Shown here: positions 2,529 to 34,535 of the stretch, piece by piece | How positions within the stretch are numbered: the first letter of the stretch is position 1 | Layout of the letters: each line of letters starts with the position of its first letter | Assembly (NCBI GenBank): GCA_965153355.1 | Contig: OZ231126.1 | Coordinates: forward strand, 15,004,001 to 15,068,000 | Length of the DNA: 64,000 bases | Direction of reading: 5' to 3' | Source: Flaccisagitta enflata | Taxonomy: Eukaryota | The notes under the pieces: model-generated | Databases searched by the model: none | What the model saw: the letters and a program-made list of their open reading frames with translations, nothing else | What the model was told of the DNA's origin: nothing | Program-made: the position numbers and the translations under genes

Positions 2529-12902
<10,374 letters not shown>

Positions 12903-13428: not shown

Positions 13429-13492
<64 letters not shown>

Positions 13493-13882
13493 CCTCTGTT
13501 TTTTCTGCTGCAACAGGACCCACTTGCTTCGCTCTCTTCCCCTCAATATTCCTTCGATCTATCCATAACACGTGCCGCTCGCGCGAATCAAAGCCATCTG
13601 TTCCCAAGTTTTTGTTTTTTTCCTCTCTCTCGTGCGCTCGCTCTCCACTCGTCAATATTTTCGTGCTCTTTTTTTCTGTCCTGTCTCTCTATCTTTCTTT
13701 ACCTTTTAAGTCGCGTGCACGCGACTCAGTAACCCGCTATGTTGGCCGGTTGGTCTGGTCTGTCCATGAAAGGTTTTTGCATCCTGCCTATTTAGACCGT
13801 AAGTACCCGCTTAGCTTTTGACATACCTGCCCCTGCACGCTAGTTGGGTAGCCGTGTATTCGGTTTTGTTTTCTCGGTCTGT

Positions 13883-14053
<171 letters not shown>

Positions 14054-14181
14054 CAATCCTCCGGCTCTCATAACCCCATACTATCTTCCTCCCTTTCCCT
14101 TCCAACTTCCCTTTCTTTTGCTTCGATTCCTCATTCCCATAGGCGTCATAGAAGAAGACCCCCTCTGGCAGGAAAATGGAG

Positions 14182-15544
14182 CGCCAACCCCTCTTTTTTT
14201 TCCTTCCTCCTCCTCCTCCACTTCTTTTCTTCCTCATCTTCCACCGCGACCAAGTGTGAAATGTGACTGTTTTAGATGCGTCATCGTGGTGAGATCTCGA
14301 CGACGCAATGTTATTGGTTTTGGGGTAAACATAATCACGAGTGTTCATGAATACTATTGACTGAAGGGAGGACAGGATTGATTGGCACGGTTTAAAGGCG
14401 TATGGCGCTGGACTAATCGATCATATGCAAGTCTACAAGCATTCAGCTCGTGTCCAATCTCCATACCATTTTTATTCGCGTGCTACGCGACTCTTCCCCC
14501 CGCTTTGTCTGTCCGTCCGTCCGTCCGTCCCACATTTCCTTTCGTGATTTTCATTCTTTAAACTCACTGCTCCTGCCCAAATGGTCCAGTGGCCTCAAAT
14601 ATGGCCCCTGCCCACCCGCACGCGATTGAGATCCGACCTTTGTTTTAAAAGGTACCATCTTAAATTATATCCAACCCCGCAGCATCGGATCTAAGAAAAG
14701 AAGTTATCCGCCCACAACACAATCCCTTTCCATGCAATAAAAACAAGGCCGGATACACGGGCCAAGACGGTGCGCCGAGCGTTTTTTATTCATAGCTATC
14801 CCTAGCTCCATCAGACTTATCCCTAGCTCTATCAGGCCTCTCCCGAGCTCTATCAGACCTTTCCCAAGCTCTTATCAGACCTATCACCAGCTCTATCAGA
14901 CCTTTCCCAAGCTCTATCAGACCTATCAACAGCTCTATCAGACCTATCCCCAGCTCTATCAGACCTATCCGACCTATCCGATCTATCACCAGACCTATCC
15001 GACCTATCCCCAGCTCTATAAGACCTAACCGTAACTGATTATATTAGTATCATTTATGATATATATGATATATATGATATATATGATATATATGTTATAT
15101 ATGATATATGATATGATATGATATATGATATGATTTATGATATGATATGATATATGATATGATATGATATATGATATGATACATGATATATGATATGATA
15201 TATGACAGGATATATGACAGGATATATGATATGATATGATATGATATCTGATATGATATATGATATGATATATGATATATGATATATGATATATGATATA
15301 TGATATATGATATGATATATGATATATGATATGATATATGATATATGATATGATATATGATATGATATATGATATGATATATGATATGATATATGATATG
15401 ATATATGATATATGATATATGATATATGATATATGATATATGATATATGATATGATATGATATATGATGTATATATATATATGAAATGATGTATGATAAA
15501 GATGAGAAAGAGTGTTTTTCAGATTCTGTTTCACGGAAAACTAG
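14182..15544. repeat. direct repeat copy 1 (1363 bp), putative giant target-site duplication of the LINE
   Basis: Matches 31501-32883 except for 2 substitutions seen, a 9-bp unit in the 21-bp minisatellite and length of the (ATATG)n array. Abuts the LINE tail. Confidence 0.9.
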
Positions 15545-15805
15545 AAATTGAAATTGAAATTGAAATACATCTATTTAACCCGAGACATGTTAAGGACACA
15601 AGATCAATAAACATATCCAAAAGGGTGCGTGCATGTGTAGTGCATAAAACTAATTTGATGGCACAAGATACATGAGCGTGAAATTTTACAACAGGCTTTG
15701 CGAGAATATATCAAATTGGGCAGAAAAGCTAAATGGTTGCGAAAGCAGTGTCGTCGTTTGGGCTAAAAGCAAAAGCTACATTCCGACGGCTGCGTTTATA
15801 CTTGG

Positions 15806-16674
15806 TGTTAGAAATGTATGTCCGTCCGTCTATTAAGTATGAGTGCATTTGTTTCTTTTGCGTGCTTTTGGTTTTTCTTCTTTTCCTGTTATTCAGTGCC
15901 GGCGTCTTTTGTTTCTCGCCATTTTTTATATTGGACGCTAGATGGGTAACCATATGGTTGCGCCTTGTATTTTGTGCCATTTGTTTTTATTACGTAGGCA
16001 AACATACGTAACTCGTCTTTCGTATCATCCAATTTTGGATTGATTGATTTTATTATTTACGGCATTGCTTCTTAAAGTGATTGATTGATTTTTCGTGATC
16101 GATTGAATGCGCCCTTGGAATTCACTAATTTCAATAATCTCTCATCTTTTTATTGCAGATAAACTTATGAACGGACAATTAACGTTAGTTTGACATCGAC
16201 AGACTGTGGGTTGAAACCAACGAAAGTGGGCCTAAAAGTAAGTTTTATAGACGCGTCTTTGCTTTTATTAACGTTGTTTTTATCTTGTCTTCCGGTCTGA
16301 TTTTAGTATGGTTTTTATCGCTTGCCCGATCAGCTTGCTATAGGGATGATATGAATGAATTTAATGGGATGGGCCGGGGCAGGTATTATCAGGTGGCATG
16401 GGCTCTGAAGAAGATGAACATGTTGTCATGTGCTGTTTCTGTCCTTTATTGTGTCCTATCTCGATTTCATGTTATCTTTTGCGTTTGCTGATCACCATTA
16501 ACGCCCACTTTCCCTTTCATTTTTCCCCCTCTCTTCAGTTGTTGAAATTTTTATGGAATAAACGAGACGATCGCCTTCCTATTTTCCAATCGGCCAACTT
16601 TCTTTCACCACAAGTCGTCAGTCAGATAGACGCTCATAGACAGTGCCAGTTGAAACTCGTGGGCGTAATTTATA
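15806..16674 (+). repeat. 5' LTR (869 bp)
   Basis: tgttagaaatg...gcgtaatttata. Differs from the 3' LTR by 2 substitutions, a 1-bp indel and a 6-bp indel (by eye). AATAAA at 16557. Confidence 0.93.
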
Positions 16675-16733
16675 TTTCAGCAATTTAAAAGCAACTCGAC
16701 TCTTTACATCTTGACCTCCAGCGAAATTGGACA

Positions 16734-19700
16734 ATGGCGGCGCGGCAGCGACGACACCGTCTCGGCTGCTTCAACGTCATCTCGTGTATCTCACTTCGGT
16801 TTGAATCAGTGTCCGAGGTCGGATCGTTTGCGCGCGATGAGAAACGACATCACGGCGGAGATGGAAGGATGCCGGCGCCTTTTCGACGCCGTTGCCGCTT
16901 ACGCCGAAGGATCGAATGATTTCGACGACGCCGCATGTGAATCAGATGGCGCTCGACACGGCCTTCGGGATATGGTCTACGACTTTATATCATACGCAAG
17001 GCAAATGGCGCTCGACTCGATGCCCGGCGACCCTCTTCGGTCGCGGCGTCCACTCTGCGTCGAATCCGGCGCGAATGGAACTCCATGCGTTTCTTCGATC
17101 GTGAAAACTATCCAGAGGGTTTTCCTTCCAACGCCGACATCGTTAACGCAATGCACAATGACATTGGGAATCGTAAAAGACCCGTCAATGAATTCTCATG
17201 GAACAGTCTCCCAACTGACACTCATGCCCGTGACAATGTGACTGGGCTCCAACACCAAGGATGCGGAACGTCTTGCCAAACCGACGGATCCGAGTATCTA
17301 CCACTTCCGGCCCCGCGACATAGTGCGCAATCTCCAACTGGCGGTCAATTTTAAATCTGCCGCCGATCCAAAGGAGATGCCGTCAATCAGTGGGTCTCGG
17401 ATTTGGTCTCGGAAATTGAACCTGCGCGTGCGTCTCCGATGGAGCAAGCTGACGACATGCTTGCGGATCTCGACGACGCCGATGCTCTTGCAAGAGGTCG
17501 TGGGATTATCAACGGACTGACGCCGCAGGAGAGGGCGAGGCGACGCTTCGTCAACAGGAGTGCGGAGAGAGACAGATGGGGTAGACAGCTGGAGGAGGAA
17601 ATGCGACAAGGCCGGCGGCTGATAGATGATTTGCAGCAGCAACAACGGGAGGAGGAGCAGCGACAGCAGGACAACAGCAGCAGCATCAATTGCAGATGCA
17701 GCAGCAGCAGCTCCAACAGCAACGTCAACTCCACCGACCACAGGAGCAGCAGCAAACGACAGCTCAACGGCAGCAGCAAGAGCTGTTGCAGCAGCAGCAG
17801 TTGCAGCAACTTCAACAATTTCGTCAACAAGACCAACAACAACGTCAAGTCTTGCAGCCGGCGCCACAACATGTGGTTCAACAACAACAACAACGGCGGC
17901 AGCAGCAGCAACAGCAGCAACAGACAGCAACAAGGGCTGCAACAACATCAACGGTTATGCTTGCCGCATGAACAACAACAACAGCGGCAAAATAATGAAG
18001 ATGAACGTATGCAACAGCAACTGCAGCAGCAACAGCAACCTTCCGCCGCGATCCCAGCGGTGGTAGTGGATCCTCCAGCGTCAAATAACCATCCTGTCGA
18101 AAGCATGAGCGTCAGTGAAGAAACAGAAGAAGAAGAGAGACAGCAGCGCCTTGCAGAACACGTCTGCGCATGATGGCTGAAGGTGAAGGTGGTGGTGCAG
18201 CAACAGCTCCAAAGGCGCCGATCGCGGTGCCATTGGGATTCCAACAGCGAAGCTCATCACAAGAAGACAAAGAGTTGTACGACAGAATGTGTAACTTTCG
18301 CCAGCAGCAGCAACGAGATAAAGATAGAAGAGCAGGAGTATTCAATAATGCGGCAGAAATGCAACGAAAACACTGGAATAGCCTGAACGACGGCGGCATT
18401 GGTGGAGCTTTAGAGCAGCGGGATGTGAAGCTTAGACAACTGTCTGAGCTGGACAAGCAGCAGCCGCAGCATCCGCCAAAAGACCGTCGATCTATCTTCT
18501 TCAATCCGGGATTGTTTCGAACTTACAGCAACGTCATGTGCAGTCAGTGGAAGCGTCCGTCAAGCAGCCGATGCAGCAGCAACAGTTGGAGCAGCAGCAG
18601 CAGCAAGGACAGCGTCAGCGTCAACTGCAGCAGCAGAATGAACAGCAACAGCATCCTGACCAGCAACAGCAGCTTCAACATCAACAGTGGCAGCAGCAAC
18701 GGCTTCAACAACTGCAACAGCATCAGGATCAGCATCACCAAACCCCAGCAGCAACGATTCTCCCTACCGCACCGGAAGTGATCTTCGAGAAGCAGATTGG
18801 TTCTGCTAGAAGGGAGACTGAACTTCCCCGTCAAGAGGAAAAGGTCTTCAACACAGCCGGAAGCGGAGGTGATGCAACGGAGGCGATGCGCAGGAGGCAG
18901 AAGCAGGAGGCCGCTGACGCGAAGTTGGCACAGCAGCTGCAAGATAAGGAGAGAAGAAAAGTCGCTCCCAAGAAGGCAATGAGTGGATTGCAGCCGAAGG
19001 CGCCAAAAGTAGCGCAAGCGCCTCTAGCAACGCCTCAAGCGGAAGTCATCCAGCAGAATCAACGTTTGCAGCAGGAAGTGGATAGTTTGAAGATGCAGAT
19101 TCAGCAGAGAGACTTTGACCTTGCCGCAGCGAGAGAAGAAGAGAAACAACGTAAAGAAGAACAACAACAGCGACAGTACGTCCGCCAAGATTTTGATGCT
19201 CCCCGATTCCATCAAGATGATCGTCAACAACAAATGAATCAGCAGGAAGAAGTTGGGTGGAGTGTGAAAACTACCAAAAAGAGATCTCCGGTCAAGGTCG
19301 GGGGTCAATACGCGTTCACCCAACAAGAGCCAGCGTATCATCAGGTGGAGCTTCATCAAGTAGCTCGTCAACCGGAAGTCCATGTACAGATGCCCAACAA
19401 TCCGGCTCTGGACATGTTCCTGGAGAGGGCGGCGTACAACGATTATATGCGAGCAAGGGAGGTCGGCCTCAAAGCATTGGAGAGAGCAAGACCTGAGAAG
19501 CCTCTGCAGGAGCTTTCATCCACCGATTTCATGATGTGGAAGAGGAAGTTCAAAGATGCTGAAAAGCATGAAGGCTTGACGCAAATGGACATTTTATTGG
19601 AATTGCCTAAGTGGTTTGCTGGTCCAGCAAAGGAGATCATTGAAACTGCGACGATTGATGCAACTGAAGCGACAGCAAGAGGAGAGATTGACGACGCCTT

Positions 19701-20597
19701 CGCAAAAATGGACGTCGTCTTTATGGCAAGGCGCTGCAACATTGCGGCGCTGTTCAACGAAATCGTCGCGGAGGCGGATCCAGTCGGCCGACCATGCAAG
19801 GCATTTCAATTTGTCTGCAAGGTTGCAAAGGCAAAGAAGATTGCGAGGACCTGTGGGAAGTGCAACACTGCTATCGTGACGAGCTGCTGCAGGAAATCCT
19901 CAATAAGAGGGTCCCTCATCTTGCAGATAAATTTTGGGAAAAGCAACATGAAGCAACCCAGAAAGGACAGTCATTTTCATTCGACAACTTGGTCAACATG
20001 ATTGAGACATGGGCGGTGATTCAGCGCAACAAAGGTGCAAGCTGCAAAACAGCGTCAGTGGCAGCAGTCGCAACGACAGAAAAAGAGGCGCCATCATCAT
20101 ACGAGGATGCTTTGACCAATGGCAAGCAAAAGATGCAGTCGACGGACCGCTGCAACGTCTGCAGTGGAATGCATCAAACAGAAGAATGTCATCAGCTGTT
20201 AGAGTTGGAAGTGGACGCGAGAGTTCAAAAGATCATGTCTCGTCGTCTTTGCTTCCACTGCCTCGCGCCAGGACACAACGCCAAAGGATGTGCAAACAGA
20301 CCAACTTGCCAGATCTGCAAGAAGCGGCACACAACAATTCTCCACGGGCGCACCTACAAGAAAGAGGAAAAGGAAGAGAAGAAAGGAGAGAATAAGCAGG
20401 GAAATAAAGTACCGCTGGCTCCCTTCAAAAAGTCAGAGGATGCGGCTGCAGCAACACCAACAGCTCCGTCGACGGCGGAGGCAGCCAATCCTCACGGAAG
20501 TGATCTCTTCCAACGTCACGGCATGACTGGCGGCGACGGCAGCGTCGCGGTCCGTCTCTTCATTCGGACGGCGTTGTCCGTCCGATTGTTCCAGTGA
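16734..20597 (+). pseudogene. frameshifted Bel/Pao gag with long Gln-rich N-terminal region
   Basis: Coding-like sequence hops among frames (ORFs 16711, 17085, 17403/17690, 18170, 18538, 19794). Bel/Pao knuckles CNVCSGMHQTEEC, CFHCLAPGHNAKGC and CQICKKRHTTILH. Start position approximate. Confidence 0.85.
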
Positions 20598-22455
20598 CTA
20601 TCATAAACAATTCTTCGGGTGTGCAGAGGACGATATACGCTATGATCGACTCAGGCGCTGATCGCGACGTGATCAGTACCAATGTTATTCGCAGTCTTCT
20701 GATTCCGACAAAAACAGTGCAAATGACGGTGATTACTGTGGGAAATCATGTTGTTGAGGATCGTTTCATCGCATCATTCACCATGAAGTCGGTCGACGAG
20801 GAATATGTCGTCGACATCAACGACGCGTTGGTGGGTGATTTGTTAACGAGTGAACGCGACATTCCTCCTTTTCTCCGCGACCTATCCGACCAACCTCACA
20901 TCAGAGATATAAAGTTTCCAGAGGCAGAAGGCGGTGTTATGATGATCATCGGAGCGGCGCATGCGGATGCCGCCGTCGCTCAGGAAGTCCGCCGAGGGCC
21001 TTCAGGATCCTTGACTTGCTTCAGATGTTTATTCGGTTGGACTGTATGTGGAAAAAGGGAAGAGGGGCGAGATTTTGCATCGATCAACGCCATCGCAACG
21101 GATGATCGCGTCCTCCACGACAGCATCGATCGCATCCTCGACAATCGCGTCCTCAACAGCAACATCGACCGCATCTTCTACCATGACTTTGCATCACCAA
21201 TCGTCTCGCAAGAGGAGATGGGCGATTCCCTTGAAAACATCAGAGCGTGCAAAATGTTAGAGGAAAAGACATACTTTTGCCCAATTGCAGCAAAGAATCT
21301 TCTTCCTAAACCGGAAGTGACGCAAGACGTCTTGGAGGAGGCGCGCAAACAGCTCGTCAAGTCAATGCAGCGGCAACATTATTCCGACGTTTTCGAACAA
21401 TTGGAGTTGGGAAAAGCCTTTAAGCCAGGAAGCCGTCGTGACTTTATCATCAAGAACAAGGAGGTGCTAAAGTTGAACCCTTTCGTCGATGACGACGGCA
21501 TCCCTCGCGTCGGCAGCCGATTGGAGAATGCCGACATCGCACATGACGCTAAATTTCCCTTCATCCTTCCGCCAAAAGACGAGGATGTGAAATCATTAAT
21601 TCGCCATTATCGTCATAATGATTTTCACGCGGGTGCAAAGCATACATTGTGCCAATTACGCCAATTTGTGTGGATTACAGAAGGTCTTCAGGCTGTCAAG
21701 AGCGTCGCCAACACGTGCTTCAGATGCCAGAAGAACTTTAAAAAGAACGCGAATCAGCGAATGGCTAATCTTCCATCAAATCGCATCAATCCTGCACCTG
21801 TTTTTACAGAGACCGGATTGGATATGTCAGCCGATGCGATGGTAAATGCAATCATCCGCTTTGCAGCAAGGCGCCCAGGAATCAACCGATTCACTTTAGA
21901 CTGTGGAACTAATCTAGTCATCGGTCTCTTCAAGCGCCATTTGCTTCCATCTCTACTGGCCATCCTTCACGTCGATGCCTTCAACACTGCTGTCGTCGAA
22001 GTTGAAGGAATTCTCAACCGTCGTCCTCTGACAGCGCTCAGTGATGATTAAATGATTCTGAGGCCCTCACACCGAATCATATCCTCAATCCATCAACATC
22101 CGGCAACGCCTCTCTGGATCTGGCGCAACAAGGCGTCAACTCTGACGCCGACTCAGCGAAGATTCAATGGAGGCGTGCGCAATCGCGTGTGGATGCGTTT
22201 TGGAAATCGTGGAGGGTCGAATATTTGTCGCTTCTTCACGCGCGAAGCAAATGGTCGAGATCCGAGAGAGACTTTGCGGTCGACGACATGGTCGTCGTCA
22301 TGGGCGAAACGCTGCCTCGTCACAATTGGAGTTTAGGACGCGTCATGGGTGTCGAAGGATCATCAGCCCATGTCCGGAGGGCTTATTCTCAACGCCAAGA
22401 TGAAAAGATCGTGAAAGACCGCATAAAGCTTCTGCGGCTGGGATTGGATTCATAA
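20594..22455 (+). pseudogene. deleted Bel/Pao pol: protease joined to partial integrase; RT and RNase H missing
   Basis: Protease YAMIDSGAD; LNPFVDDDGIPRVGSRL; integrase zinc-binding region HAG..CFRC; core fragments TGLD, RFAARR, DCGTNL, EVEGILNRRPL; then a frameshift to FWKSWRVEYLSLLHARSKW..WSLGRV. No RT YxDD region is present. Confidence 0.88.
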
Positions 22456-23534
22456 AAAACGCTAAGTTTTGAGAGAGAGAGAAAAAAGGCGCATGGGCCT
22501 GTCCATTAGTAACTATAGATATGAGTGATTGAAACTCTGACTTGTTATATTTACAAAGAGTTGTTATTATTCATATTTGGTTCTGATTATCCATGCTTTC
22601 ATCTTTCCTCTTGTCAATTATGTTATCCATTTCCATTAACACATCAAAAACACTGATTCATTCGCTCTGTCTACATGTACATATGATTGTGCCAAAATCC
22701 ATTCTTATCATTATCAGTTCGCGTTAACGAACATTTCAAAGCTTCCGCTGACGACGTTGTTCCATCTGCGAAGTCAGTCTACATCTTGAAGTCGCTCGTC
22801 GGAGTCAAGATGTCCCGTCAGCATCCGGCTCCACCTGCGCCTTTCGATGCGGTCGCCGTTTGACATCATTCATCGCCTTTCGCCCCGGAGTTGACGAGAT
22901 GTTGGAGCCAGAATGACCGCTCGTCTCTGTAATGGAGAAGGCGCAGGTGATGTGGTCGTTCCATGATGCTTACTAATTTTTTCTTTTACTTAACAGATTC
23001 GTTTTTATATATAGTTAGTAATTTATTTAATTTTGTCTTGTTTTGTTTGGTTCCTTGGAACATGTACATTTTTGTTGTGTTTGTTTTAGACATGTCTTTT
23101 TAATCTTTATTACGAATACTTTCGTATGATATGTTTTTAGTAGTATGCCCCTACTTATTATTTTCCACTCTCAAGTCAAATCCCAGGCTTGGAGTGCTCC
23201 AAGGCCCGTTCCCCCTTTCCCCCCCCTTTCCCCTTAACTTTTTCAGAACGGGTGCCTCAACCTCCTCGTCTCCGCCTCGTTTCCATCCGCGTCATCGTGA
23301 TCGTTGAAAATTTGCTGGTGGTGGATCCTTTCCGGACGGGAATCATCATTCGTGCAGTCGTCGATCTGTTGATAGTTAGGGTGGGGATGTAAGAGGCGGT
23401 GGACGGGGAGAGGGGCGGGGCTGTGTCTATGTAATTTTTTTAAGGAAGGTAGTATCGGTTTTTAGTAGGGTTTCCCGACTGGAAACTAGATGTCGGAGTT
23501 TTGAAATTCGTGAAATTCCAAAAATGGGGCAGAA

Positions 23535-24408
23535 TGTTAGAAATGTATGTCCGTCCGTCTAGTAAGTATGAGTGCATTTGTTTCTTTTGCGTGCTTTTGG
23601 TTTTCTTCTTTTCCTGTTATTCAGTGCCAGCGTCTTTTGTTTCTCGCCATTTTTTATATTGGACGCTAGATGGGTAACCATATGGTTGCGCCTTGTATTT
23701 TGTGCCATTTGTTTTTATTACGTAGGCAAACATACGTAACTCGTCTTTCGTATCATCCAATTTTGGATTGATTGATTTTATTATTTACGGCATTGCTTCT
23801 TAAAGTGATTGATTGATTTTTCGTGATCGATTGAATGCGCCCTTGGAATTCACTAATTTCAATAATCTCTCATCTTTTTATTGCAGATAAACTTATGAAC
23901 GGACAATTAACGTTAGTTTGACATCGACAGACTGTGGGTTGAAACCAACGAAAGTGGGCCTAAAAGTAAGTTTTATAGACGCGTCTTTGCTTTTATTAAC
24001 GTTGTTTTTATCTTGTCTTCCGGTCTGATTTTAGTATGGTTTTTATCGCTTGCCCGATCAGCTTGCTATAGGGATGATATGAATGAATTTAATGGGATGG
24101 GCCGGGGCAGGGGCAGGTATTATCAGGTGGCATGGGCTCTGAAGAAGATGAACATGTTGTCATGTGCTGTTTCTGTCCTTTATTGTGTCCTATCTCGATT
24201 TCATGTTATCTTTTGCGTTTGCTGATCACCATTAACGCCCACTTTCCCTTTCATTTTTCCCCCTCTCTTCAGTTGTTGAAATTTTTATGGAATAAACGAG
24301 ACGATCGCCTTCCTATTTTCCAATCGGCCAACTTTCTTTCACCACAAGTCGTCAGTCAGATAGACGCTCATAGACAGTGCCAGTTGAAACTCGTGGGCGT
24401 AATTTATA
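23535..24408 (+). repeat. 3' LTR (874 bp)
   Basis: Copy of 15806-16674, preceded by the PPT and followed by TSD cttgg. Confidence 0.93.
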
Positions 24409-24495
24409 CTTGGAATATTTTTTCCACTAAAGTAGCATTAGTCCAAAGGCACAAGCGAAAGTCCGAAGGCACAACCGTCGTCGTCGTCGTTGTCG

Positions 24496-24534
<39 letters not shown>

Positions 24535-24612
24535 TCGTAGTTGTTTTCGTAGTTGTTTTCGTAGTTGTTTTCGTAGTTGTTTTCGTAGTTGTTTTCGTAG
24601 TTGTTTTCGTAG

Positions 24613-24660
<48 letters not shown>

Positions 24661-25198
24661 TTGTTGTTGTTGTTGTTGTTGTTGTTGTTATTGTTTTTTT
24701 CGTTGTTGTTTTCGTTGTTGTTTTCGTTGTTGTTGTTGTTGCTGTTGTTGTTGTTGTTGTTGTTTTTGTTGTTGGAGAGCAGGACTGAACGAGATCGGCG
24801 CGGCGGACGGCGACTTGCGGGAATTGCAAGTTTCGAAATTCGTCACGGGCTTGGGCTCGGTCATCGTGAGACGTAGACATGTGGAGGAACAATGATGGGG
24901 ATGAAGAATGTTAAGATGTTGCCAAATTGACTGGGTTACATTGTACAACGTAAACGTTATACAGTATTCGGCTCACCTGAGGCTACAGGTGCTTGTGCCT
25001 GCACCGAATATCCTCCAACGCTGCCCGCTGAACCCCGGGTCCTATGCGCGGACAGAAACCGGCGGCGCCAACAACGCTGGCGCTGCGAACCAGGAGATCT
25101 TGAGGCTTGAGCTTTAAGCGGCCCCCAGGGGCTTAGGGGACCGGTGCTCTCGAAGTTGGCGTACGTTTGGTTGCCGATTCGAATGGTGAGTGCGAGAG

Positions 25199-25275
<77 letters not shown>

Positions 25276-25309
25276 CGATTCGAATGGTGAGTGTGAGAGA
25301 TGGTTTCGG

Positions 25310-25379
<70 letters not shown>

Positions 25380-25456
25380 CGCTGCTGCTGCTGCTGCTGC
25401 TGTTGTTTTTTTTGTTTTGTTTTTTGTTATTGTTGTTGTTGTTTTTGTTTTTTTAA

Positions 25457-28381
25457 TTAAGATCGCATAGCAGCAATTTCCGAGTCACTAAAGATGCATT
25501 CAGTCACGCTTTTGTATATCCCCGAAGCATTGTCTCTTCGTTCATCAGTGATTTTTTTCCCAAATGGGCTGAATCGAATAATTGCGGTTACTCGTTTTTT
25601 CGCAAATGCCGTAAGTTCCTCTTGAATTGATTTGATACCCGTGTGATGACAAAGTGTGTCATAGCTCGTATAACTCGGGACGCCGCAGTAGAATTTCACA
25701 CAACGTGAGTGGATTTTTTTCAGTTTGTCCCAGAGGCACGCGTTCATGCTAACGTAAGCAACTGAACCATACTTCCAGATCGAGTTAACAACGGCATCGT
25801 GCAGTTTGATGACGCGTTCCGGATGGCTCCACGTTGATTTTGCGGATATGGATTTGAGGGCGCTAATTCTTGGAATGGCGCTGCCAATCATTTCATCAAC
25901 ATGACGCTTCCATGTGAGTTTTTCGTCAAAGCGGACACCGAGGAACCTGTGACTTTGGACTTGCTGTAGGACCTTTCCGAGTAGCTCAATGCGTACAGTC
26001 ATTCTTTGATGTGTTGGACGTCTGCTGAAGAATATGAAGACGGATTTTTCTGGAGCGAGTTTGATGCGCCAATCGCAGGTCCATTTGGCAAGACGTTGCA
26101 AGACTTTATTCATTCGTGCCTCTGCCCGTCTTGGGCATGCATCACTAATCCATAATGCCACGTCATCTGCATATTGGGCAAGGTTGATGTTTTCATCAAT
26201 TCCAAGAATTTTTTTCAAGTCGTCGACAAATATATTGAATAATGTAGGACTAAGCACGGCTCCCTGAGGGGTTCCCGCAGCCATGTTGACATTGTCTGAA
26301 ATGATTTTGTCAACCTTAACTCGGAGAGATCGACTTGTGAGAAAGCCTTTTATGACACATAGAAGGTTTAATGGCAACCGCATCATCAGTAGCTTCCACA
26401 TTAGTCCCGATATCCAAACGCGATCAAAGGCGCCGGAAACGTCGAGAAATACTGCAATGACACATTCCTGCTTTGCAAAGGCGTGATTGACGTCCTCAGC
26501 TAGACGGAGAATATGTTCTTGGGTGGATCGTCCTTTTTTGTAAGCTGCCTGATGAATGTTTTCTGCAATTTGTCGTTTCCGTTTTTCCATTTCTAAACGT
26601 TCTTTGATGCTGCATTCGAATAATTTGGAGACGCAACTTGACAAACTTATCGGCCTCCAATTTTTTGCTTCTTTGAGGTCTTTACCCGCTTTGGGGATCA
26701 TAGTAATCCTCACTGATCTCCATTTCTGTGGAAAGTATCCGGCGACATACAAACAAGTAAAGAGTTGTGCAAGACCAACTATGAAATTTTTTCCAGCATT
26801 CTTAATCGCCTTATAAGTGACGCCATCTGATCCCGCCGATGACCGATTTTTCCGACTTTTCAAATGATATCTTATTTCATTGACAGTGATTTTTTGCGGA
26901 TGAAATATTGGCGGCGATTTTTTCCCAAATCTGCCAATTCTCTCTTCATCTATGAAAAATGATTCATCCTTTTCCATGATAATTTTTGCCTTTTCGAAAT
27001 CTGGCTTAATCAGCTCCAATGCTGCGTCGACTTCCGCGCTGATTTTTTGACGATGAGTTTCAGAAAAGTTGGCATCCGATGGAAAGCTGTGAGCAGTTGC
27101 CAGCCTGTCAGAATGTATTTTTGCTATCGAAAGGTCGTCCTTATGCAAGATTCCATTTGCATCTCGTATGCCCTTGTTGTTGTGCTCATGACTTTTGCTG
27201 TTACCCAGATTTGGCGCCGCGTCCTTTAACATCTTCCACGATTTAGCGCCATCTTTTTCATTCCATATTTTGGTCATTTCATGCGACTCTTTCTTCTCCA
27301 TATCTCTCTTGATACATCTTTTTATATCTCGGTTAAGTCGATTATTCATTCTTCTTATGACTTCTGTATCTTTGCCTTCTTCTTCAAGCTCCTTCCGTAT
27401 CTTATTCAGTTTTCTTCGTAGACTTATGAAATTTCGAGTTTCTTTTGATAGAACAACTCCGTCTCTCGTCAGCACTTTTAGCATTTTGCTGTGTTTATCA
27501 ACGGCTTCATTGATACTTTGGCAAATATCACTTATAGTTTCCTCCGTTCTATATTCGTTGCTGCAGTTAACCAAAGGCTTTATGTCTTTTAATTCATCTT
27601 TCACTTTCTCCCAATCAATTACTTTTATTGTTCTTTTTCCAGTTTTGAACCCAATGTCCAGTTTGAAGGAAGTTATCACATGATCTGATCCGCACTGGCC
27701 ATCTGTGAACCATTTTGTCGACGATGCGCTTGTCTTCAGCTTCAGCAGACAAAGGTCGATGCATGATGTAATGTTGTGACTAGTTGAGAAATAAGTGGGA
27801 TCATCATCATTTTGTATCGCATAGCCGTTAGAGCAAGCCAAAGAGGTAAGCATCTGTCCGGCTTTATCTGTCTTTTTTGTGTGCCCAAGACCTATATGCG
27901 CATTCATATCGCCAATTAGAACCGCTGCTTCAAAGTTGTGTGACAATCCCTCAAGAGCGTCAAAATGCTTTTGCAGTAGAATCTCACCAGGATGAAGATA
28001 CACAATTGCTAACCTTAATCTTTTGTTGTCAGTTTCCGCTTCAATAACTATCAACTCGTTAATGTTATTTTCGATCTCCGAGATTTTTATTCCATTTTTT
28101 ACCAATATGAGAACCCCTCCGGGCACAGCAGTTCCACTATGATGATCTTTTCGGATGCATTTGTATCCTTTGAATCTTATAGACTGATTTCTTTTTAATC
28201 TTGTGTCATTTATGCATATAAAATGATTGGTGACATTTTTCCTTCTATCAATCAGCAAGCCAATTTCATGTTTCTTGTTCTTGATAGAGTTGATGTTTAT
28301 TTGATCGATGATGATACTGCTGGAGTTGCTGCTGATAGCATTACTACCGGCATTACACGCCACTGCAGCTCTTGTGGACAT
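25457..28381 (-). CDS. LINE ORF2: AP endonuclease + reverse transcriptase, 974 aa
   Basis: APE motifs QININSI, ICINDTRL, GGVLILVK, GDMNAH, CIDL, GSDH; RT motifs WRPISLSSCVSKLFE, AYKKGRST, FLDVSGAFDRVW, GTPQGAVLSPTLFNIF, QYADD, FLGVRFDEKLTW. No stops or frameshifts. Confidence 0.95.
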   Translation of the reverse strand: MSTRAAVACNAGSNAISSNSSSIIIDQININSIKNKKHEIGLLIDRRKNVTNHFICINDTRLKRNQSIRFKGYKCIRKDHHSGTAVPGGVLILVKNGIKISEIENNINELIVIEAETDNKRLRLAIVYLHPGEILLQKHFDALEGLSHNFEAAVLIGDMNAHIGLGHTKKTDKAGQMLTSLACSNGYAIQNDDDPTYFSTSHNITSCIDLCLLKLKTSASSTKWFTDGQCGSDHVITSFKLDIGFKTGKRTIKVIDWEKVKDELKDIKPLVNCSNEYRTEETISDICQSINEAVDKHSKMLKVLTRDGVVLSKETRNFISLRRKLNKIRKELEEEGKDTEVIRRMNNRLNRDIKRCIKRDMEKKESHEMTKIWNEKDGAKSWKMLKDAAPNLGNSKSHEHNNKGIRDANGILHKDDLSIAKIHSDRLATAHSFPSDANFSETHRQKISAEVDAALELIKPDFEKAKIIMEKDESFFIDEERIGRFGKKSPPIFHPQKITVNEIRYHLKSRKNRSSAGSDGVTYKAIKNAGKNFIVGLAQLFTCLYVAGYFPQKWRSVRITMIPKAGKDLKEAKNWRPISLSSCVSKLFECSIKERLEMEKRKRQIAENIHQAAYKKGRSTQEHILRLAEDVNHAFAKQECVIAVFLDVSGAFDRVWISGLMWKLLMMRLPLNLLCVIKGFLTSRSLRVKVDKIISDNVNMAAGTPQGAVLSPTLFNIFVDDLKKILGIDENINLAQYADDVALWISDACPRRAEARMNKVLQRLAKWTCDWRIKLAPEKSVFIFFSRRPTHQRMTVRIELLGKVLQQVQSHRFLGVRFDEKLTWKRHVDEMIGSAIPRISALKSISAKSTWSHPERVIKLHDAVVNSIWKYGSVAYVSMNACLWDKLKKIHSRCVKFYCGVPSYTSYDTLCHHTGIKSIQEELTAFAKKRVTAIIRFSPFGKKITDERRDNASGIYKSVTECIFSDSEIAAMRS

Positions 28382-28398
28382 GCTGCATGTTAGTTGAG

Positions 28399-31122
28399 TT
28401 AATCAAGTTGACGCCAGATTGAGGATGCAATGGAGGTTGCAACGCTGAGTGGAGTGATCCAAACTGCTGCGAGTGTTGAAGGAGGAGGAGGAGGAGGATG
28501 AGAATGTTGATGCAGGTGTGATGGAAGCGTTGGTGGCGCCGCTGCTGCTGCTACTGCTGCTGATGTCGCTTGTTGAAGGGATGCCATTGGCGTTGCTGGG
28601 GCAAGAAGATGAAGATTTGATGCATCTGTCAACATGCCTGTCTGTATTACTTTGGGCTGGACTGCCTCAATTGTAGATCCCATTGATGGCGCTAGGAGGT
28701 CACCCATTATCTCAGCGCAGTCAAGTAGAGCGTTTGGTGCATCTCCCCAACACCTGACCTGAATGTTAGGGATTGCTGATGCATCTGCATTTTTCCTGCT
28801 TTTTTCTTGATGACGTTGTTGATGAAGATGAGCCGTTGGAAGAGCAAATTGCTTGTCCATTTGTGCCTCAACTTCCATACAAATCTCGTTGTTTTGTGCA
28901 ACTGGGTGTGCCTTGGAATTCGCCAATGCTGTTGCAGTTGGATTGATCTGATCAGAAGATGCTGCAGATGGATGCGTCATTGCAGTAATTGTTTTTGATG
29001 ATGCTGGTGATGCTGCTGTTGATGGTATGTTTGCTGTTATAGGAAACGAAGGAGCGTTGAGTCTTGCTGCTTTTGCTGCTTCAGTGGCGGCTGCTGCTGC
29101 AGCTGCCGTTGCCCTTGCTTCTGCTATATCAGCTTCCTTATTCATTTGTGACATTCGAGAGTTTCTCCGTGGTGACGACGCGGGGCTTACACCAGGACGA
29201 GTTTTGATGTATTCATTCTCAAACAGACTTCTGGCAAAGATTGCTATATCAAAATTGTCGCCGTATTTTTTGTTGACCAATCGAACACTGTCATCAAAGA
29301 TTGATCTTTTGTCAAGTGCCGTATTTGAGATCTTGGGAGCAATAACATCAACTACCAATTCGACTGCTGCTGCAAGAATTCTCGTTGCATCTTCAGATTT
29401 TATCTTTCCCAGCGTCAATTCGCCATCATATCTGTTTCTGACAGTTGATGGGGCAGGATGATTGAATTCTTGACCAGAGTTGAGAGATGAGAGTTGAGAG
29501 ATGGTTTGCTCACTTTGTCGCGCGTTAGAGTAGAGATTTGGATTGACAGAGGGCATTGAGGGCGCAATTTCACTTTGTTGATTTTTTGCCACCGCAGCAT
29601 AAGTTTTTTTCTTTCTCTCATCTCGTTGGTATTTGATTTTGGCTGGACAGCCCTTGAAAGTTGAGAGATGATTTTCACCACAGTTAAGGCATGTGGCTGT
29701 GTCTTCTCCTGCTGTGCAATCCTTCTGGCTGTGTTCTTTGCTGCCGCATTTTATGCAGACTGCTTCATTTTGACAATCTATGGCAATATGCCCGTGCTCA
29801 CCACAGTTAAAGCATTGATTCACTTTAACAGTTGTATGTCTTTGTACCGCATACCTTTGATATCTGAGGAGGAGGCCATCTTCAACCAATTTGTCAGCAT
29901 CACCGGCTTTATGTATGATGGCTCTCATTGTGAGAGTCGGTGATTTATTAGCCCCAGTTTTTACTCTTTCCAAGTTGCAAAATGAGATTTGTCGCTTCAT
30001 TAGAGCCTCTTTTACTTCGTCTTCTTTGATGTCTTCTTCTACCCACTTGATGTAGACTGTTTTGGCGAAATTGTCAGTGAGTGCAAGCCTGGGAATTAGA
30101 CTTATTTCGCTTGTCTTCCACCTTTCTTGAAGCATCATTGTATTGAAATCTTTTTGGGTCTTTCCAACGACCAGAATGTCATTTTTCCTTGTTTTTCTTA
30201 TTTCAAGGATTTCACATTCGGCTGGCTTGTGCTCTTCAACTATTTTTATCAGAGTTGGCCGACTGTCAATTTGCTCTTGACTTAGATTGTGACCCAGCAA
30301 AAGCCCAAACGGGTTTCTTTTGTTCCCAACCTGACGTCTTGGTTGGCCTTGTCCTGTTTTAGCTCTCGCACCTTGTGGCAGGGAGGATACTGGCGTAGCA
30401 GACTGACCAAGCTTAGTCCCAGTGGCAGTTGTTTGTGACGCTTGAGACGCCGCTTGATGTTGACGGGTATCCGTTGGTACTTGGTTCACAGATGCTGAGA
30501 ATTTGGCTGTGAGTAATTTTGTGTTTCCAATTCCAATTATTGATGAAGATGCAGCTGGCGCCGTCGATACGATACCTGCTGAGGTGGTTACTAACGAGGA
30601 AGGTGCTGCAGATGCAGACATTGTCGTCGACGTGGTTGCTGCAGATGTAGTCGTCGTCAATACGGCTGCTGCAGATGTTTTTGTTGATGATGCAGTTGCT
30701 GCAGATGAAGCATTAGAAAGCCCATTTGCAGATGTATCAGCCCCCGTGGAAGGTGGTGGCGCAAATCCCACGTCGAAGGACGAGTTGGGAAGCGGGAATT
30801 GATGTGCAGCCATTATGCTGTTTTTGTTGTAGATGGTAGACGCGAGATCTAGGGAAGGAGCTGAAGGTGACGCCGTCTCTTCAGAGCCGGCTGAGCTAAC
30901 GTCGTCTCTTTGTCTTTTACGTAGTGGCGTTATTTTAGACCTTTTTCCGCCTTTGCGACTTTTTTTCTCTTTTGTAGCATCACTGGCTTCTTTATCTTGA
31001 GCGGAGTTAGACAGTAACTCTCTTATTTTTTGTTGGATCTCACTCGGAGCATTACAGAAACGTGAGGTTATTTCTTTCTCTTGGTCAGCTGTCTCAGCTG
31101 ACTCGTGAGACATGGATGACAT
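28399..31122 (-). CDS. LINE ORF1 nucleic-acid-binding protein (gag-like), 907 aa
   Basis: Three zinc knuckles CFNCGEHGHIAIDC, CIKCGSKEHSQKDC and CLNCGENHLSTFKGC, preceded by an RRM-like region (KTVYIKWVEEDIKEDEVKEAL). ATG in caaccATG context. Confidence 0.9.
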   Translation of the reverse strand: MSSMSHESAETADQEKEITSRFCNAPSEIQQKIRELLSNSAQDKEASDATKEKKSRKGGKRSKITPLRKRQRDDVSSAGSEETASPSAPSLDLASTIYNKNSIMAAHQFPLPNSSFDVGFAPPPSTGADTSANGLSNASSAATASSTKTSAAAVLTTTTSAATTSTTMSASAAPSSLVTTSAGIVSTAPAASSSIIGIGNTKLLTAKFSASVNQVPTDTRQHQAASQASQTTATGTKLGQSATPVSSLPQGARAKTGQGQPRRQVGNKRNPFGLLLGHNLSQEQIDSRPTLIKIVEEHKPAECEILEIRKTRKNDILVVGKTQKDFNTMMLQERWKTSEISLIPRLALTDNFAKTVYIKWVEEDIKEDEVKEALMKRQISFCNLERVKTGANKSPTLTMRAIIHKAGDADKLVEDGLLLRYQRYAVQRHTTVKVNQCFNCGEHGHIAIDCQNEAVCIKCGSKEHSQKDCTAGEDTATCLNCGENHLSTFKGCPAKIKYQRDERKKKTYAAVAKNQQSEIAPSMPSVNPNLYSNARQSEQTISQLSSLNSGQEFNHPAPSTVRNRYDGELTLGKIKSEDATRILAAAVELVVDVIAPKISNTALDKRSIFDDSVRLVNKKYGDNFDIAIFARSLFENEYIKTRPGVSPASSPRRNSRMSQMNKEADIAEARATAAAAAAATEAAKAARLNAPSFPITANIPSTAASPASSKTITAMTHPSAASSDQINPTATALANSKAHPVAQNNEICMEVEAQMDKQFALPTAHLHQQRHQEKSRKNADASAIPNIQVRCWGDAPNALLDCAEIMGDLLAPSMGSTIEAVQPKVIQTGMLTDASNLHLLAPATPMASLQQATSAAVAAAAAPPTLPSHLHQHSHPPPPPPSTLAAVWITPLSVATSIASSIWRQLD

Positions 31123-31465
31123 GGTTGCCGTTGTTTGCGAGCAGTGAGGAGGAGGACGAGGAGGAGGAGGGAGGAGACAACGGTTGCTGTTGTTGCTGTA
31201 GCTCTCGTGTTGCTGTGATGATGCCAGACAACGATAGTAGATAGTAGATTATCCTTACGAAATATTAATTATTATTCAAATGAAATAGAAAAATTTTTTT
31301 TTTTTCCATAGACAGCCCCCGTCGGGGCGGCCACGTGTTTATTTTCTTTCTGCTACTTAGGTTTTTATTTTCCGTCTCCGAGAAAAATGGTCAAGTCGTT
31401 TTCGAACAGAGTTATTTTTGGGCGAGGAATTTTCGTGGATTAATCGGGCAAGAGAAAAAATAATT

Positions 31466-31499
31466 CGTCTTCTCCTTGCGAGTCTCGAGTCGTGAATGA
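31466..31499 (-). promoter_or_regulatory. LINE internal Pol II core promoter (Inr + DPE)
   Basis: The minus strand reads TCATTC (Inr TCAKTY, A+1 = 31497), G at +24, and AGACG at exactly +28..+32 (31470-31466). This is the canonical Inr-DPE spacing of jockey/I-type LINEs. Confidence 0.75.
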
Positions 31500-31500
31500 A

Positions 31501-32883
31501 CGCCAACCCCTCTTTTTTTTCCTTCCTCCTCCTCCTCCACTTCTTTTCTTCCTCATCTTCCACCGCGACCAAGTGTGAAATGTGACTGTTTTAGATGCGT
31601 CATCGTGGTGAGATCTCGACGACGCAATGTTATTGGTTTTGGGGTAAACATAATCACGAGTGTTCATGAATACTATTGACTGAAGGGAAGACAGGATTGA
31701 TTGGCACGGTTTAAGGGCGTATGGCGCTGGACTAATCGATCATATGCAAGTCTACAAGCATTCAGCTCGTGTCCAATCTCCATACCATTTTTATTCGCGT
31801 GCTACGCGACTCTTCCCCCCGCTTTGTCTGTCCGTCCGTCCGTCCGTCCCACATTTCCTTTCGTGATTTTCATTCTTTAAACTCACTGCTCCTGCCCAAA
31901 TGGTCCAGTGGCCTCAAATATGGCCCCTGCCCACCCGCACGCGATTGAGATCCGACCTTTGTTTTAAAAGGTACCATCTTAAATTATATCCAACCCCGCA
32001 GCATCGGATCTAAGAAAAGAAGTTATCCGCCCACAACACAATCCCTTTCCATGCAATAAAAACAAGGCCGGATACACGGGCCAAGACGGTGCGCCGAGCG
32101 TTTTTTATTCATAGCTATCCCTAGCTCCATCAGACTTATCCCTAGCTCTATCAGGCCTCTCCCGAGCTCTATCAGACCTTTCCCAAGCTCTTATCAGACC
32201 TATCACCAGCTCTATCAGACCTTTCCCAAGCTCTATCAGACCTATCAACAGCTCTATCAGACCTATCCCCAGCTCTATCAGACCTATCCGATCTATCACC
32301 AGACCTATCCGACCTATCCCCAGCTCTATAAGACCTAACCGTAACTGATTATATTAGTATCATTTATGATATATATGATATATATGATATATATGATATA
32401 TATGTTATATATGATATATGATATGATATGATATATGATATGATTTATGATATGATATGATATATGATATGATATGATATATGATATGATACATGATATA
32501 TGATATGATATATGACAGGATATATGACAGGATATATGATATGATATGATATGATATCTGATATGATATATGATATGATATATGATATATGATATATGAT
32601 ATATGATATATGATATATGATATGATATATGATATATGATATGATATATGATATATGATATGATATATGATATGATATATGATATGATATATGATATGAT
32701 ATATGATATGATATATGATATGATATATGATATGATATATGATATGATATATGATATATGATATATGATATATGATATATGATATATGATATGATATGAT
32801 ATATGATGTATATATATATATGAAATGATGTATGATAAAGATGAGAAAGAGTGTTTTTCAGATTCTGTTTCACGGAAAACTAG
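31501..32883. repeat. direct repeat copy 2 (1383 bp)
   Basis: Starts cgccaacccctc.. immediately after the LINE 5' end and ends ..cacggaaaactag like copy 1. Confidence 0.9.
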
Positions 32884-34438
32884 GAGTGGTGCGCGTATTA
32901 ACTACATCTATTTAACTAGTCAGTGAGGGTTCACAAGGCCCTCTTCCATTTATTTCAGTTTGGGTATAGTGAGGGATATTGTTCCACTTTTCATATGATA
33001 TATATATGATATATATATATGATGTATATGATATTGATGATATATATGATGATATATATGATATAATATATATGATATCATTTATGATATATATCATTTA
33101 TGATATATTAGTATCATTTATGATGAACAAAATGAGTTTTCTTTTGATTTCAAAAACTTTTAGCGATTTTTCATTCGAGCGTGACCGACGGATGGACGGA
33201 CAGACAGACAGAGCTTCTTATAGAGATGCTATGGCGCATCTAAAAATCATCCTAGCATATTTCTGAATCATTTCCAGTGATTCTTGCTTCTTTTCGAGAT
33301 TTTTAACTCGAGCGTTACAGACCGACCAACCGACCGACCGACCAACAGACAGAGCCTCTTATAGAGGTGCCATGGCGCACCTAAAAATACAAGCAACAGA
33401 TCGTACATTTCCAAACCTTTGGACGAGACCACAAGATGATGCAAACGAATCACCGCGCCTTCGTGTGATGAAATGCAGCCTCATTGCCACGCGAAAACTA
33501 TCCATTTACGGCGCATAAATGTCGTCAATGTAATAACCAAAGGTCCGATGAAGAATCGGAGAGCTTGAAGGACGACCGAGACATTTCGAGAAGGAACTCA
33601 TAGGGGAAGGGGAATGAGAGAAGTCGCTGGAAGGAGAGAAGCCAAAGATGAGAAAAAGCTTTCGATGGTCGGCGATGCCCACTGATCGGCAAAAGTCTGG
33701 CTTTAATGTCTATCAATAGTTACCATGTAAGCAGGATTTTTTTTTTAGCTAAATTCTTGAGAACATAAATTTTTTATCGATGAAATATCCAATGGTGGCG
33801 TGCCTTAATAGAATCTTCAATTTAGATATGACTGACTTTATCTATAAAAGACAAAGTAATAAAAAAAACATTAAACAAGAACAGCACAGAACAAATGACG
33901 GATGGTCAGGTGGGGCAGTACTAAAGAGAATACTCACACGTCTTAAAATGACAAGGATACCAGATTGATTACTATAATATCATACAAATCATCGAAAAAA
34001 ACTTATTTTCAATAATATAGACCGACCGAGGGATAGATCATGAATGGACTGACGCAACAGGACATGTGTCTGCAACCAAAAAGAAACAAATGTCAGGATA
34101 GAACACAAGACCCATTTGAGCTGTTGCCCAAGAAAGTAGAAGGCGGGACGGTGATGAGTCACGAGAGAAAAGTCACGCTTTATGCAACTGTCGCAGCCAA
34201 TTGCCGTCAATCACTGCCTCCCCCTCCGCTTTCGAGAAGCATCGGACAGGTCATAGTCATTCCCTCAAATGAGCATCACCGCGCTCTTTGTCTCTCCTCT
34301 TTATTTCTCACTTTTTTGTCTGTCTTCTGTTATTCTGCTCTGTGAGTGTGAATGTCTGTCTACCTCTTTCCTCATTCTTTCCTTTTTTCCACCGCAATCT
34401 GTCTGTCTAACTTTGTCCCCATTTCTTGACGTGTCGCT

Positions 34439-34535
<97 letters not shown>

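Follow-up and report, generated by a model that had tools for sequence, protein, structure and literature searches.

The 64-kb window, that is, the whole stretch of DNA analysed here, contains a LINE on the minus strand that lies between two nearly identical copies of a host segment. We denote the two copies A1 and A2, the left flank X and the right flank Y, and the order at the locus is X-A1-LINE-A2-Y (Table 1). Self-BLAST of the window aligned 14175-15544 with 31495-32883 at 97.0% identity over 1399 columns, and global alignment set the true boundaries of the repeat at 14182-15544 (1363 bp) and 31501-32883 (1383 bp). In the global alignment, A1 and A2 share 1351 identical columns and differ by two substitutions and two indels. 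The substitutions (G/A at 14370 and A/G at 14396) are spaced only 26 bp apart, and the indels both fall in tandem repeats, one of 9 bp within the 21-bp minisatellite and one of 29 bp within the (GATAT)n array. The near-identity of the two segments had been noticed in an earlier reading made from the letters alone (the sequence-only reading), and it was confirmed at the very coordinates given there. Direct repeats in the window were taken as pairs of at least 250 bp with an offset of >700 bp, and as near-identical at 97% identity or more. The only near-identical long-range pairs were the A copies and a pair of LTRs (15806-16674 and 23535-24408), and the remaining distant pairs listed were 77-82% identical. 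As only the LTR pair besides A is near-identical in 64 kb, the region shows no general segmental duplication. Searches of the flank and of A for tRNAs and Rfam families gave 0 matches.

Table 1. Features of the locus, in window coordinates
Feature	Position	Strand	Remarks
Pyrimidine-rich host tract	13300..14245	+	perfect (CT)83.5 at 13885-14051; spans the X/A1 boundary
A1, left copy of host segment	14182..15544	.	1363 bp
Content of A1	within A1		pyrimidine-rich start; old interspersed repeat, 14469-14632; 21-bp minisatellite, 14796-15027; (GATAT)n, 15055-15498
LINE 3' tail	15545..15565	-	sense (TTTCAA)x3.5, joined to the last base of A1
LINE 3' UTR, distal	15566..15805	-	final 14 non-tail nt GTTAAATAGATGTA (sense), 15566-15579
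TSD of nested element	15801-15805 and 24409-24413		CTTGG, 5 bp
Nested LTR retrotransposon	15806..24408	+	8603 bp, within the LINE 3' UTR
LTRs of nested element	15806-16674 and 23535-24408	direct orientation	869 bp and 874 bp; 2 substitutions, 2 indels
LINE 3' UTR, proximal	24409..25456	-	(AAC)n-type arrays, 24489-24774 and 25200-25449
LINE ORF2	25457..28402	-	981 codons open; APE endonuclease (Exo_endo_phos/Exo_endo_phos_2) and RVT_1
LINE ORF1	28399..31248	-	949 codons open; CCHC zinc knuckle region
LINE 5' UTR	31249..31500	-	sense start TTCATTCACG; Inr-like TCATTC, A+1 at 31497; joined to the first base of A2
A2, right copy of host segment	31501..32883	.	1383 bp
Nick-site region	32878..32919	+	AACTAG (end of A2, first-strand nick site), 30 nt, second AACTAG

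The element between the copies is a young, intact APE-type LINE in which both ORF1, with its CCHC region, and ORF2, with endonuclease and reverse transcriptase, are open. The sequence-only reading had described a full-length LINE filling the space between the copies. Both termini are indeed exact, but the interval of 15,956 bp (15545-31500) is made up of the minus-strand LINE and a nested 8,603-bp LTR element, and the LINE proper measures 7,348 bp once the nested element is removed. Pfam searches of ORF2 detected RVT_1 (1.8e-31), Exo_endo_phos_2 (1.5e-09) and Exo_endo_phos (2.8e-05, just under the cutoff). The order of APE endonuclease and then RT in ORF2, the simple-repeat tail, the Inr-like 5' end and the lack of terminal repeats of its own identify the element as an APE-type LINE. 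ORF1 ends at a stop codon ~20 nt before the first ATG of ORF2, and the two are in different frames. The 5' UTR carries a DPE-like AGACG at +28 to +32. The CCHC knuckles of ORF1, together with the lack of an RNase H, would suggest the Jockey/CR1 superfamily. A protein search with ORF2 returned 27 proteins, none closer than 54% identity, the closest being metagenome ORFs at 53-54%; its neighbours in the protein atlas were generic EN-RT clusters, commonest in Arthropoda. Within the 64-kb window, BLASTN found no repeat of the LINE ends elsewhere, and BLASTN of the ends combined with TBLASTN of both ORFs found no second copy or fragment. Six pattern matches to the family in IMG/VR yielded 0 confirmed cases, and the 14 loci matching a degenerate 3'-end motif in JGI metagenomes were all due to chance, with similarity never extending beyond 22-27 nt.

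The nested element has two direct LTRs, a short TSD and gag-pol remnants, which identify it as an LTR retrotransposon. Its interior gave a weak aspartic protease match, Integrase_H2C2 (1.8e-06) and DUF5641 (2.5e-18), and it is presumably BEL/Pao-like. RT, RNase H and an integrase core were not detected among the nine ORFs scanned, suggesting that the nested element is probably a non-autonomous deletion derivative. The nested element provides a relative age for the duplication. Over 1353 aligned sites A1 and A2 show 2 differences, and the LTR pair shows 2 over 869 (Fisher p=0.65), counts that are too small for dating. At this resolution, the duplication is not detectably older than the LTR insertion, which must itself post-date the LINE.

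A is host DNA and apparently does not belong to the element. Within it lies an old interspersed repeat (14469-14632) that has four further copies in the window at 77-79% identity, and the tracts of A run into the outer flanks. The pyrimidine tract of X (66-100% pyrimidine) does not stop at the boundary, as the first 64 bp of A are still 91% pyrimidine, against 44% on the LINE side of A2. At the other boundary, (GATAT)-type arrays are present on either side of the joint between A2 and Y, and the 19-mer TATTAGTATCATTTATGAT, found at 15042, 32352 and 33106, recurs across it. The host-like character of the duplicated DNA proposed in the sequence-only reading is therefore borne out, both by the internal old repeat with its four other window copies and by the tracts that continue into X and Y. 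That reading had relied on a resident repeat starting near 14740/32060, cut by the tail in A1 and continuing to ~33245 after A2. No other copy of this repeat occurs in the window, although host repeat structure is continuous across the A2/Y joint as had been claimed. The repeat with four other window copies is a different one and is older than that at ~14740/32060.

Alternative identities for A were also considered and rejected. A does not represent the LTRs of a composite element, since a LINE with exact termini lies in reverse orientation between the copies, and A itself is built of host repeats. Nor is it a 5' or 3' transduction, as there is no second tail after A and the X/A1 and A2/Y joints are native host joints.

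The junctions between A and the LINE are exact. The end of A1 runs straight into AAATTG x3.5 (15545-15565), which complements (TTTCAA)n. Immediately before the start of A2 stands the LINE 5' end, which reads TTCATTCACG... in reverse complement and bears the Inr-like TCATTC. The direct repeats of the target adjoin both LINE termini without spacer or filler, so the claim that one copy abuts the tail and the other the Inr-bearing 5' end, with nothing in between, holds to the base at both junctions. No clear microhomology was seen at either junction. Since both termini are bona fide element ends, these are retrotransposition junctions rather than arbitrary breakpoints.

Collectively, these results are best read as one retrotransposition event in which 1363 bp separated the first nick from the break in the second strand, producing a giant TSD, a reading to which we assign a probability of about 0.6. 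The proposal of a single insertion with a ~1.36-kb TSD is the most economical one and fits the exact termini, the host-like nature of A and a duplication not detectably older than the nested LTR element. The anatomy of the locus, its exact junctions, the origin of A in the host and the relative ages are observed; that a single event made both junctions, and how the second break arose, is inferred. In the proposed sequence of steps, the LINE endonuclease would nick the plus strand of the window after ...GGAAAACTAG, at the empty-site position between 15544 and 32884. Primed by the 3'-OH of the nick, the LINE RNA would be reverse-transcribed, starting in its (UUUCAA)n tail. The break in the other strand would lie 1363 bp leftward, between 14181 and 14182, instead of a few bp away. 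This position falls within the pyrimidine-rich host tract, and the second break would thus lie inside a polypurine/polypyrimidine tract, 131 bp from the perfect (CT)83 run. It could have been a nick made late or in the wrong place, or a break that was already there, possibly in the sister chromatid. The end of the full-length cDNA would then be joined at the distant break, and fill-in of two 1.36-kb single-stranded overhangs would leave one copy of A on each side of the LINE. The LTR element would have inserted into the LINE 3' UTR afterwards.

The site of the first nick has a structure of its own. The 30-nt piece between the two AACTAG motifs ends in the LINE 3'-terminal motif, a 14-mer at 32903-32916, which lies 19 nt from the nick in the target compared to 21 nt in the LINE RNA. 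The resemblance is limited to the 14-mer and a few nt: the best local alignment of the LINE 3' UTR with Y scored 30, within the range of shuffled sequences (maximum 33), and neither the LINE 3' end nor the Y flank gave an RNA fold better than those of shuffles (z of -0.10 and -0.28, respectively), giving no indication of a shared 3' hairpin. The 14-mer at the nick could reflect RNA-DNA pairing that guides first-strand cleavage. Alternatively, the 30-nt piece could be an earlier micro-insertion with a normal 6-bp TSD that regenerated the site, which was then hit again. A broader version of this idea, in which kilobase duplication is a property of the LINE family, as in Dualen-4b, and the nick site is chosen or re-used via the element's own 3' end, appears doubtful. 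That this LINE would duplicate kilobase segments as a habit, as the sequence-only reading suggested, is an extrapolation from the one copy at this locus.

Several observations weigh against a single event. Unequal exchange between two nearby insertions gives an identical junction structure, the clustering of the substitutions in A is also compatible with a conversion tract or with two haplotypes, the junctions lack clear microhomology, and the LINE-like 14-mer just past A2 points to an unexplained history or property of the site. In a rival history, two LINEs of the same family and orientation would have inserted 1.36 kb apart on different haplotypes and been merged inside the LINE, either by a real unequal crossover or by an assembler's haplotype switch in the ~16-kb repeat (nested element included). 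The haplotypes X-LINE-A-Y and X-A-LINE-Y would then yield X-A-LINE-A-Y, and the edges of A would conceal short TSDs of the ordinary kind. Exactly the observed junctions would be produced, the LINE-like motif and the repeated AACTAG beside A2 hint at a neighbourhood that attracts this LINE family, and the differences between A1 and A2 are clustered as allelic variants can be. However, such a history requires two full-length insertions of the same family within 1.4 kb plus an exchange, in a 64-kb window that holds no second LINE copy or fragment. The start of A has no motif like the AACTAG nick site or the 14-mer. Marine invertebrates are usually highly polymorphic and, if this species is too, 2 differences in 1353 sites is a low number for two haplotypes. 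We therefore consider merged insertions unlikely.

A misassembly of another kind, such as a false duplication or chimeric join at a heterozygous 16-kb insertion whose real filled allele carries one A, might be expected where long microsatellites and a 16-kb repeat-within-repeat make assembly difficult. Yet an artefact would have no reason to match the tail and the Inr-bearing 5' end to the base, nor to fall at a host position that nothing sets apart in the empty site. Moreover, the A copies are non-identical (two substitutions and two indels), so a single consensus was not just written out twice. This makes an artefact of this kind quite improbable. The mini- and microsatellites in A are also prone to replication slippage and duplication, which would favour a host segment that was already tandem (X-A-A-Y) when the LINE landed exactly at the joint between the two copies, without a TSD of its own. 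In this scenario, one particular phosphodiester bond in 2.7 kb had to be hit, leaving neither TSD nor deletion. In addition, divergence between the A copies (2/1353) does not exceed that between the LTRs of the later insertion (2/869), and thus gives no hint of a duplication of greater age. A prior tandem duplication is accordingly a very remote explanation, and a single insertion with a giant TSD remains our preferred reading.

Kilobase TSDs have been documented before, making the present case a new natural example rather than a new phenomenon. ZfL2-2, a zebrafish LINE of the L2 clade, produced a 1228-bp TSD in 1 of 25 insertions in wild-type chicken DT40 cells (Suzuki et al. 2009, PMC2666801). 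Like the element described here, it is an APE-type LINE with a short-repeat tail, and the kilobase target duplication was seen at a single insertion as a rare outcome (PMC2666801). In contrast, the ZfL2-2 element was engineered, its host cells were in culture and the site before insertion was known, whereas the present copy is natural, full-length and apparently germline (PMC2666801). For human L1, TSDs in NER-deficient cells had a median length of 1495 bp, the shortest being 5 bp and the longest 5.3 kb (Servant et al., PMC5223499), and those in complemented cells reached up to 1.6 kb (PMC5223499). The explanation offered there, as here, is that the second strand was nicked or broken at a distance from where the endonuclease cut; those insertions had poly(A) tails, were all 5'-truncated and arose in repair-defective cells, while ours has a hexamer-repeat tail and is full length (PMC5223499). 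In Chlamydomonas mutation-accumulation lines, de novo insertions of Dualen-4b_cRei had flanking duplications with a median of 900 bp, which, as for our LINE, were interpreted as very long TSDs (PMC9977147). In that family the long TSD is a habit, found in more than half of insertions, whereas the present LINE is known from one copy (PMC9977147). The long TSDs of Dualen were also tentatively linked to its two endonucleases (RLE and APE), whereas our ORF2 shows only APE and RT (PMC9977147). The L1-bridged tandem duplications of tumours (PCAWG) likewise have a single L1 insertion at the joint of a direct duplication, but at a scale of 22.6 Mb and in a somatic cancer context (PMC7058536). The rotifer element R9, as described in papers that cite the original work, differs in having a fixed, site-specific 126-bp TSD in rDNA. 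Published long-TSD events are mostly sporadic, as in the 1 of 25 for ZfL2-2 (PMC2666801).

If real, the locus X-A1-LINE-A2-Y would represent a natural, probably germline LINE insertion that duplicated 1.36 kb of host DNA, made by a full-length, intact element in a wild marine animal. So far, kilobase TSDs have mostly been documented in assays on cultured cells, in cells deficient in repair, in tumours and in one algal family. A second break within a polypurine/polypyrimidine tract by the (CT)83 run offers a testable idea on the origin of the distant break, and the LINE-like motif at the nick site offers another on target choice. The 1.4-kb direct repeats left by such an event could later mediate precise loss of the element, and this would account for all observed cases being very young. 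Retrotransposition would, if the duplication is real, be a source of small segmental duplications.

Comparison of the 64-kb window with itself revealed two near-identical pairs of long-range direct repeats. One pair (15806-16674 vs 23535-24408; 99.0% identity over 875 columns) represents the LTRs of a retrotransposon, and the other (14175-15544 vs 31495-32883; 97.0% over 1399 columns) represents the left and right copies, A1 and A2, of a segment A that flanks a LINE. Global alignment returned exactly the bounds that the sequence-only reading had given for A1 and A2 and bore out their near-identity, with 1351 identical columns, two substitutions and two indels, a similarity far above chance level. 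Both indels lie within tandem arrays: a 21-bp minisatellite accounts for 9 bp and a (GATAT)n array for 29 bp. The sole substitutions, at 14370 and 14396, are both G/A transitions and only 26 bp apart, a spacing with a chance of roughly 4% for two random sites within 1353 bp. Such clustering may point to a conversion tract, to local mutation at fill-in or to an allelic origin. Elsewhere, a direct pair (1688-2218 vs 3299-3821; 82%) and an inverted pair (7719-8128 vs 36097-36546; 77-79%) are probably older interspersed repeats. Two large tandem arrays were also present (48992-50207 and 62870-63607), one with a period of ~24 bp and 92-96% identity and the second, near the window end, more diverged. 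Long (CT)n/(GA)n microsatellites are spread through the whole window at intervals of about 10 kb.

Coordinates of the duplicated segment, the elements between its copies and the long microsatellites
Feature	Position	Strand	Details
A1	14182-15544		1363 bp; bounds from global alignment
A2	31501-32883		1383 bp; bounds from global alignment
LINE	15545-31500	-	
LINE ORF1	28399-31248	-	949 codons, open; CCHC knuckle
LINE ORF2	25457-28402	-	981 codons, open; APE endonuclease and RVT_1 domains
LTR element	15806-24408	+	8,603 bp, nested in LINE 3' UTR
(CT)n/(GA)n microsatellite	5005-5321		
(CT)n/(GA)n microsatellite	13885-14051		perfect, 83.5 units; 131 bp from proposed second-strand break
(CT)n/(GA)n microsatellite	34440-34691		
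(CT)n/(GA)n microsatellite	37683-37930		
(CT)n/(GA)n microsatellite	46835-47062		
(CT)n/(GA)n microsatellite	57893-58045		

The end of A1, ...GGAAAACTAG, runs straight into the complement of the LINE tail, and the LINE 5' end, reverse-complemented, leads directly into the start of A2, CGCCAACC.... Neither joint contains a filler base, confirming the earlier claim that the copies adjoin the tail and the Inr-bearing 5' end with no spacer. Because both junctions are exact element termini, they are genuine retrotransposition joints. The likeness of the copies ends at their outer limits, with X, the host DNA left of A1, before 14182 and Y, the host DNA right of A2, after 32883. Three lines of evidence identify A as host DNA. 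Within A1, 14469-14632 belongs to an old interspersed repeat, of which the window has four more copies, 77-79% identical. X is 73% pyrimidine, then a perfect (CT)83.5 run, then 66% pyrimidine, and this tract carries on into A, whose initial 64 bp are 91% pyrimidine, compared to 44% on the LINE side of A2. Finally, the 19-mer TATTAGTATCATTTATGAT is found in Y as well as in A, and so are (GATAT)-type arrays. Since A is host DNA, the joints of X with A1 and of A2 with Y are native, and those of A1 with the tail and of the 5' end with A2 are new. The interspersed repeat and the continuity into X and Y uphold the host-like nature first proposed for A. The further proposal of an interspersed repeat running from near 14740 in A1 to ~33245 beyond A2 was borne out for continuity across A2-Y; no other copies of it were found in the window.

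The A1-to-A2 interval spans 15,956 bp. The sequence-only reading had placed a full-length LINE here; its exact termini held, and the interval also contains the nested LTR element, whose subtraction leaves a LINE of 7,348 bp. The first ORF2 ATG lies ~20 nt past the ORF1 stop in a different frame. On the sense strand the LINE begins TTCATTCACG..., with an Inr-like TCATTC and, at +28 to +32 from the A of this motif, AGACG, which we take to match the DPE consensus. It ends ...GTTAAATAGATGTA, followed by a (TTTCAA)x3.5 tail. Long (AAC)n-type arrays (GTT on the + strand) occupy 24489-24774 and 25200-25449 in the 3' UTR. They are unusually bulky for a 3' UTR that measures ~1.3 kb. The closest relative in the protein collection searched had at most 54% identity, and scans of IMG/VR and of JGI metagenome contigs found no relatives.

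The nested element, presumably BEL/Pao-like, has LTRs of 869 and 874 bp that differ by two substitutions and two small indels, and is flanked by a 5-bp target-site duplication (TSD), CTTGG. The only domain signals in its interior, spread over several frames, were Integrase_H2C2, DUF5641 and a weak aspartic protease match; a scan of nine ORFs detected neither RT nor RNase H nor an integrase core. The element has the appearance of a non-autonomous deletion derivative that was mobilised recently. The LINE must have inserted before it. Per-site differences were 2/869 for the LTR pair vs 2/1353 for A1/A2 (Fisher p=0.65). Judged from these counts, which are too small for finer dating, the duplication and both insertions all appear recent, with the duplication not detectably older than the LINE.

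A giant TSD of ~1.36 kb, as originally suggested, is the best available explanation of the exact junctions and host-type A, although it is unproven. We put the probability that a single target-primed reverse transcription event made the whole structure at about 60%. The first nick would fall on the + strand after AACTAG (32878-32883), at the end of A2, and the second-strand break 1363 bp off, inside a polypurine/polypyrimidine tract beside the (CT)83 run; filling in of the two long overhangs would then duplicate A. The distant break may have been made by the element itself, as a misplaced nick, or may already have been present, possibly on the sister chromatid. It lies in the type of tract that adopts unusual DNA structures, which would favour the second possibility, a pre-existing lesion. 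The sequence-only reading went on to suggest that this LINE may duplicate host DNA on the kilobase scale as it inserts; that would carry a single case over to the whole family.

An identical picture would arise from a pair of insertions in the same orientation, on different haplotypes and 1.36 kb apart, if unequal crossover or an assembler haplotype switch had joined them within the LINE. This is unlikely, as two full-length insertions so close together would be a coincidence, and the copies of A are very similar to each other. An assembly artefact of another kind is quite improbable, being expected neither to match both LINE termini to the base nor to yield copies of A that differ. Had a tandem A-A duplication come first, the later LINE must have struck the exact joint between the copies and created no TSD of its own, which makes this order of events very improbable.

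The single-event mechanism is already known from experiments, so the structure would be a new natural example and not a new mechanism. Among 25 ZfL2-2 insertions in wild-type DT40 cells, one had a TSD of 1228 bp (PMC2666801). TSDs >100 bp are reported for <10% of L1 events in HeLa cells, and TSDs of 5 bp to 5.3 kb (median 1495 bp) in NER-deficient cells (PMC5223499). More than half of de novo Chlamydomonas Dualen-4b insertions are described with duplications >50 bp, median 900 bp (PMC9977147), and tumours with tandem duplications bridged by L1 insertions (PMC7058536). Ordinary human germline insertions are given TSDs of 10-20 bp (PMC12350158).

The proposed nick site also carries a LINE-like motif. 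At the A2 end, + strand 32878-32919 reads AACTAG, 30 nt and a second AACTAG. With 13 occurrences of AACTAG in the 128 kb of both strands, the chance of a second copy within 50 nt is roughly 0.5%. The 30-nt piece ends in TACATCTATTT. The last 14 non-tail nucleotides of the LINE (15566-15579) recur exactly as TACATCTATTTAAC at 32903-32916. This 14-mer lies 19 nt from the A end, compared to 21 nt in the LINE, where the tail separates it from the junction, and occurs nowhere else in the window at 0 or 1 mismatch. The other 19 nt of the piece had no match in the window, and no more homology or common fold was found between the LINE 3' end and the Y flank. The motif may be an earlier 30-nt micro-insertion of the same LINE family with a normal 6-bp TSD, in which case the nick site was used twice. 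It may instead reflect homology-guided targeting, in which the target paired with the 3' end of the LINE RNA, or a resident element having the LINE 3' end in common. The motif adds slightly to the moderate interest of the case.
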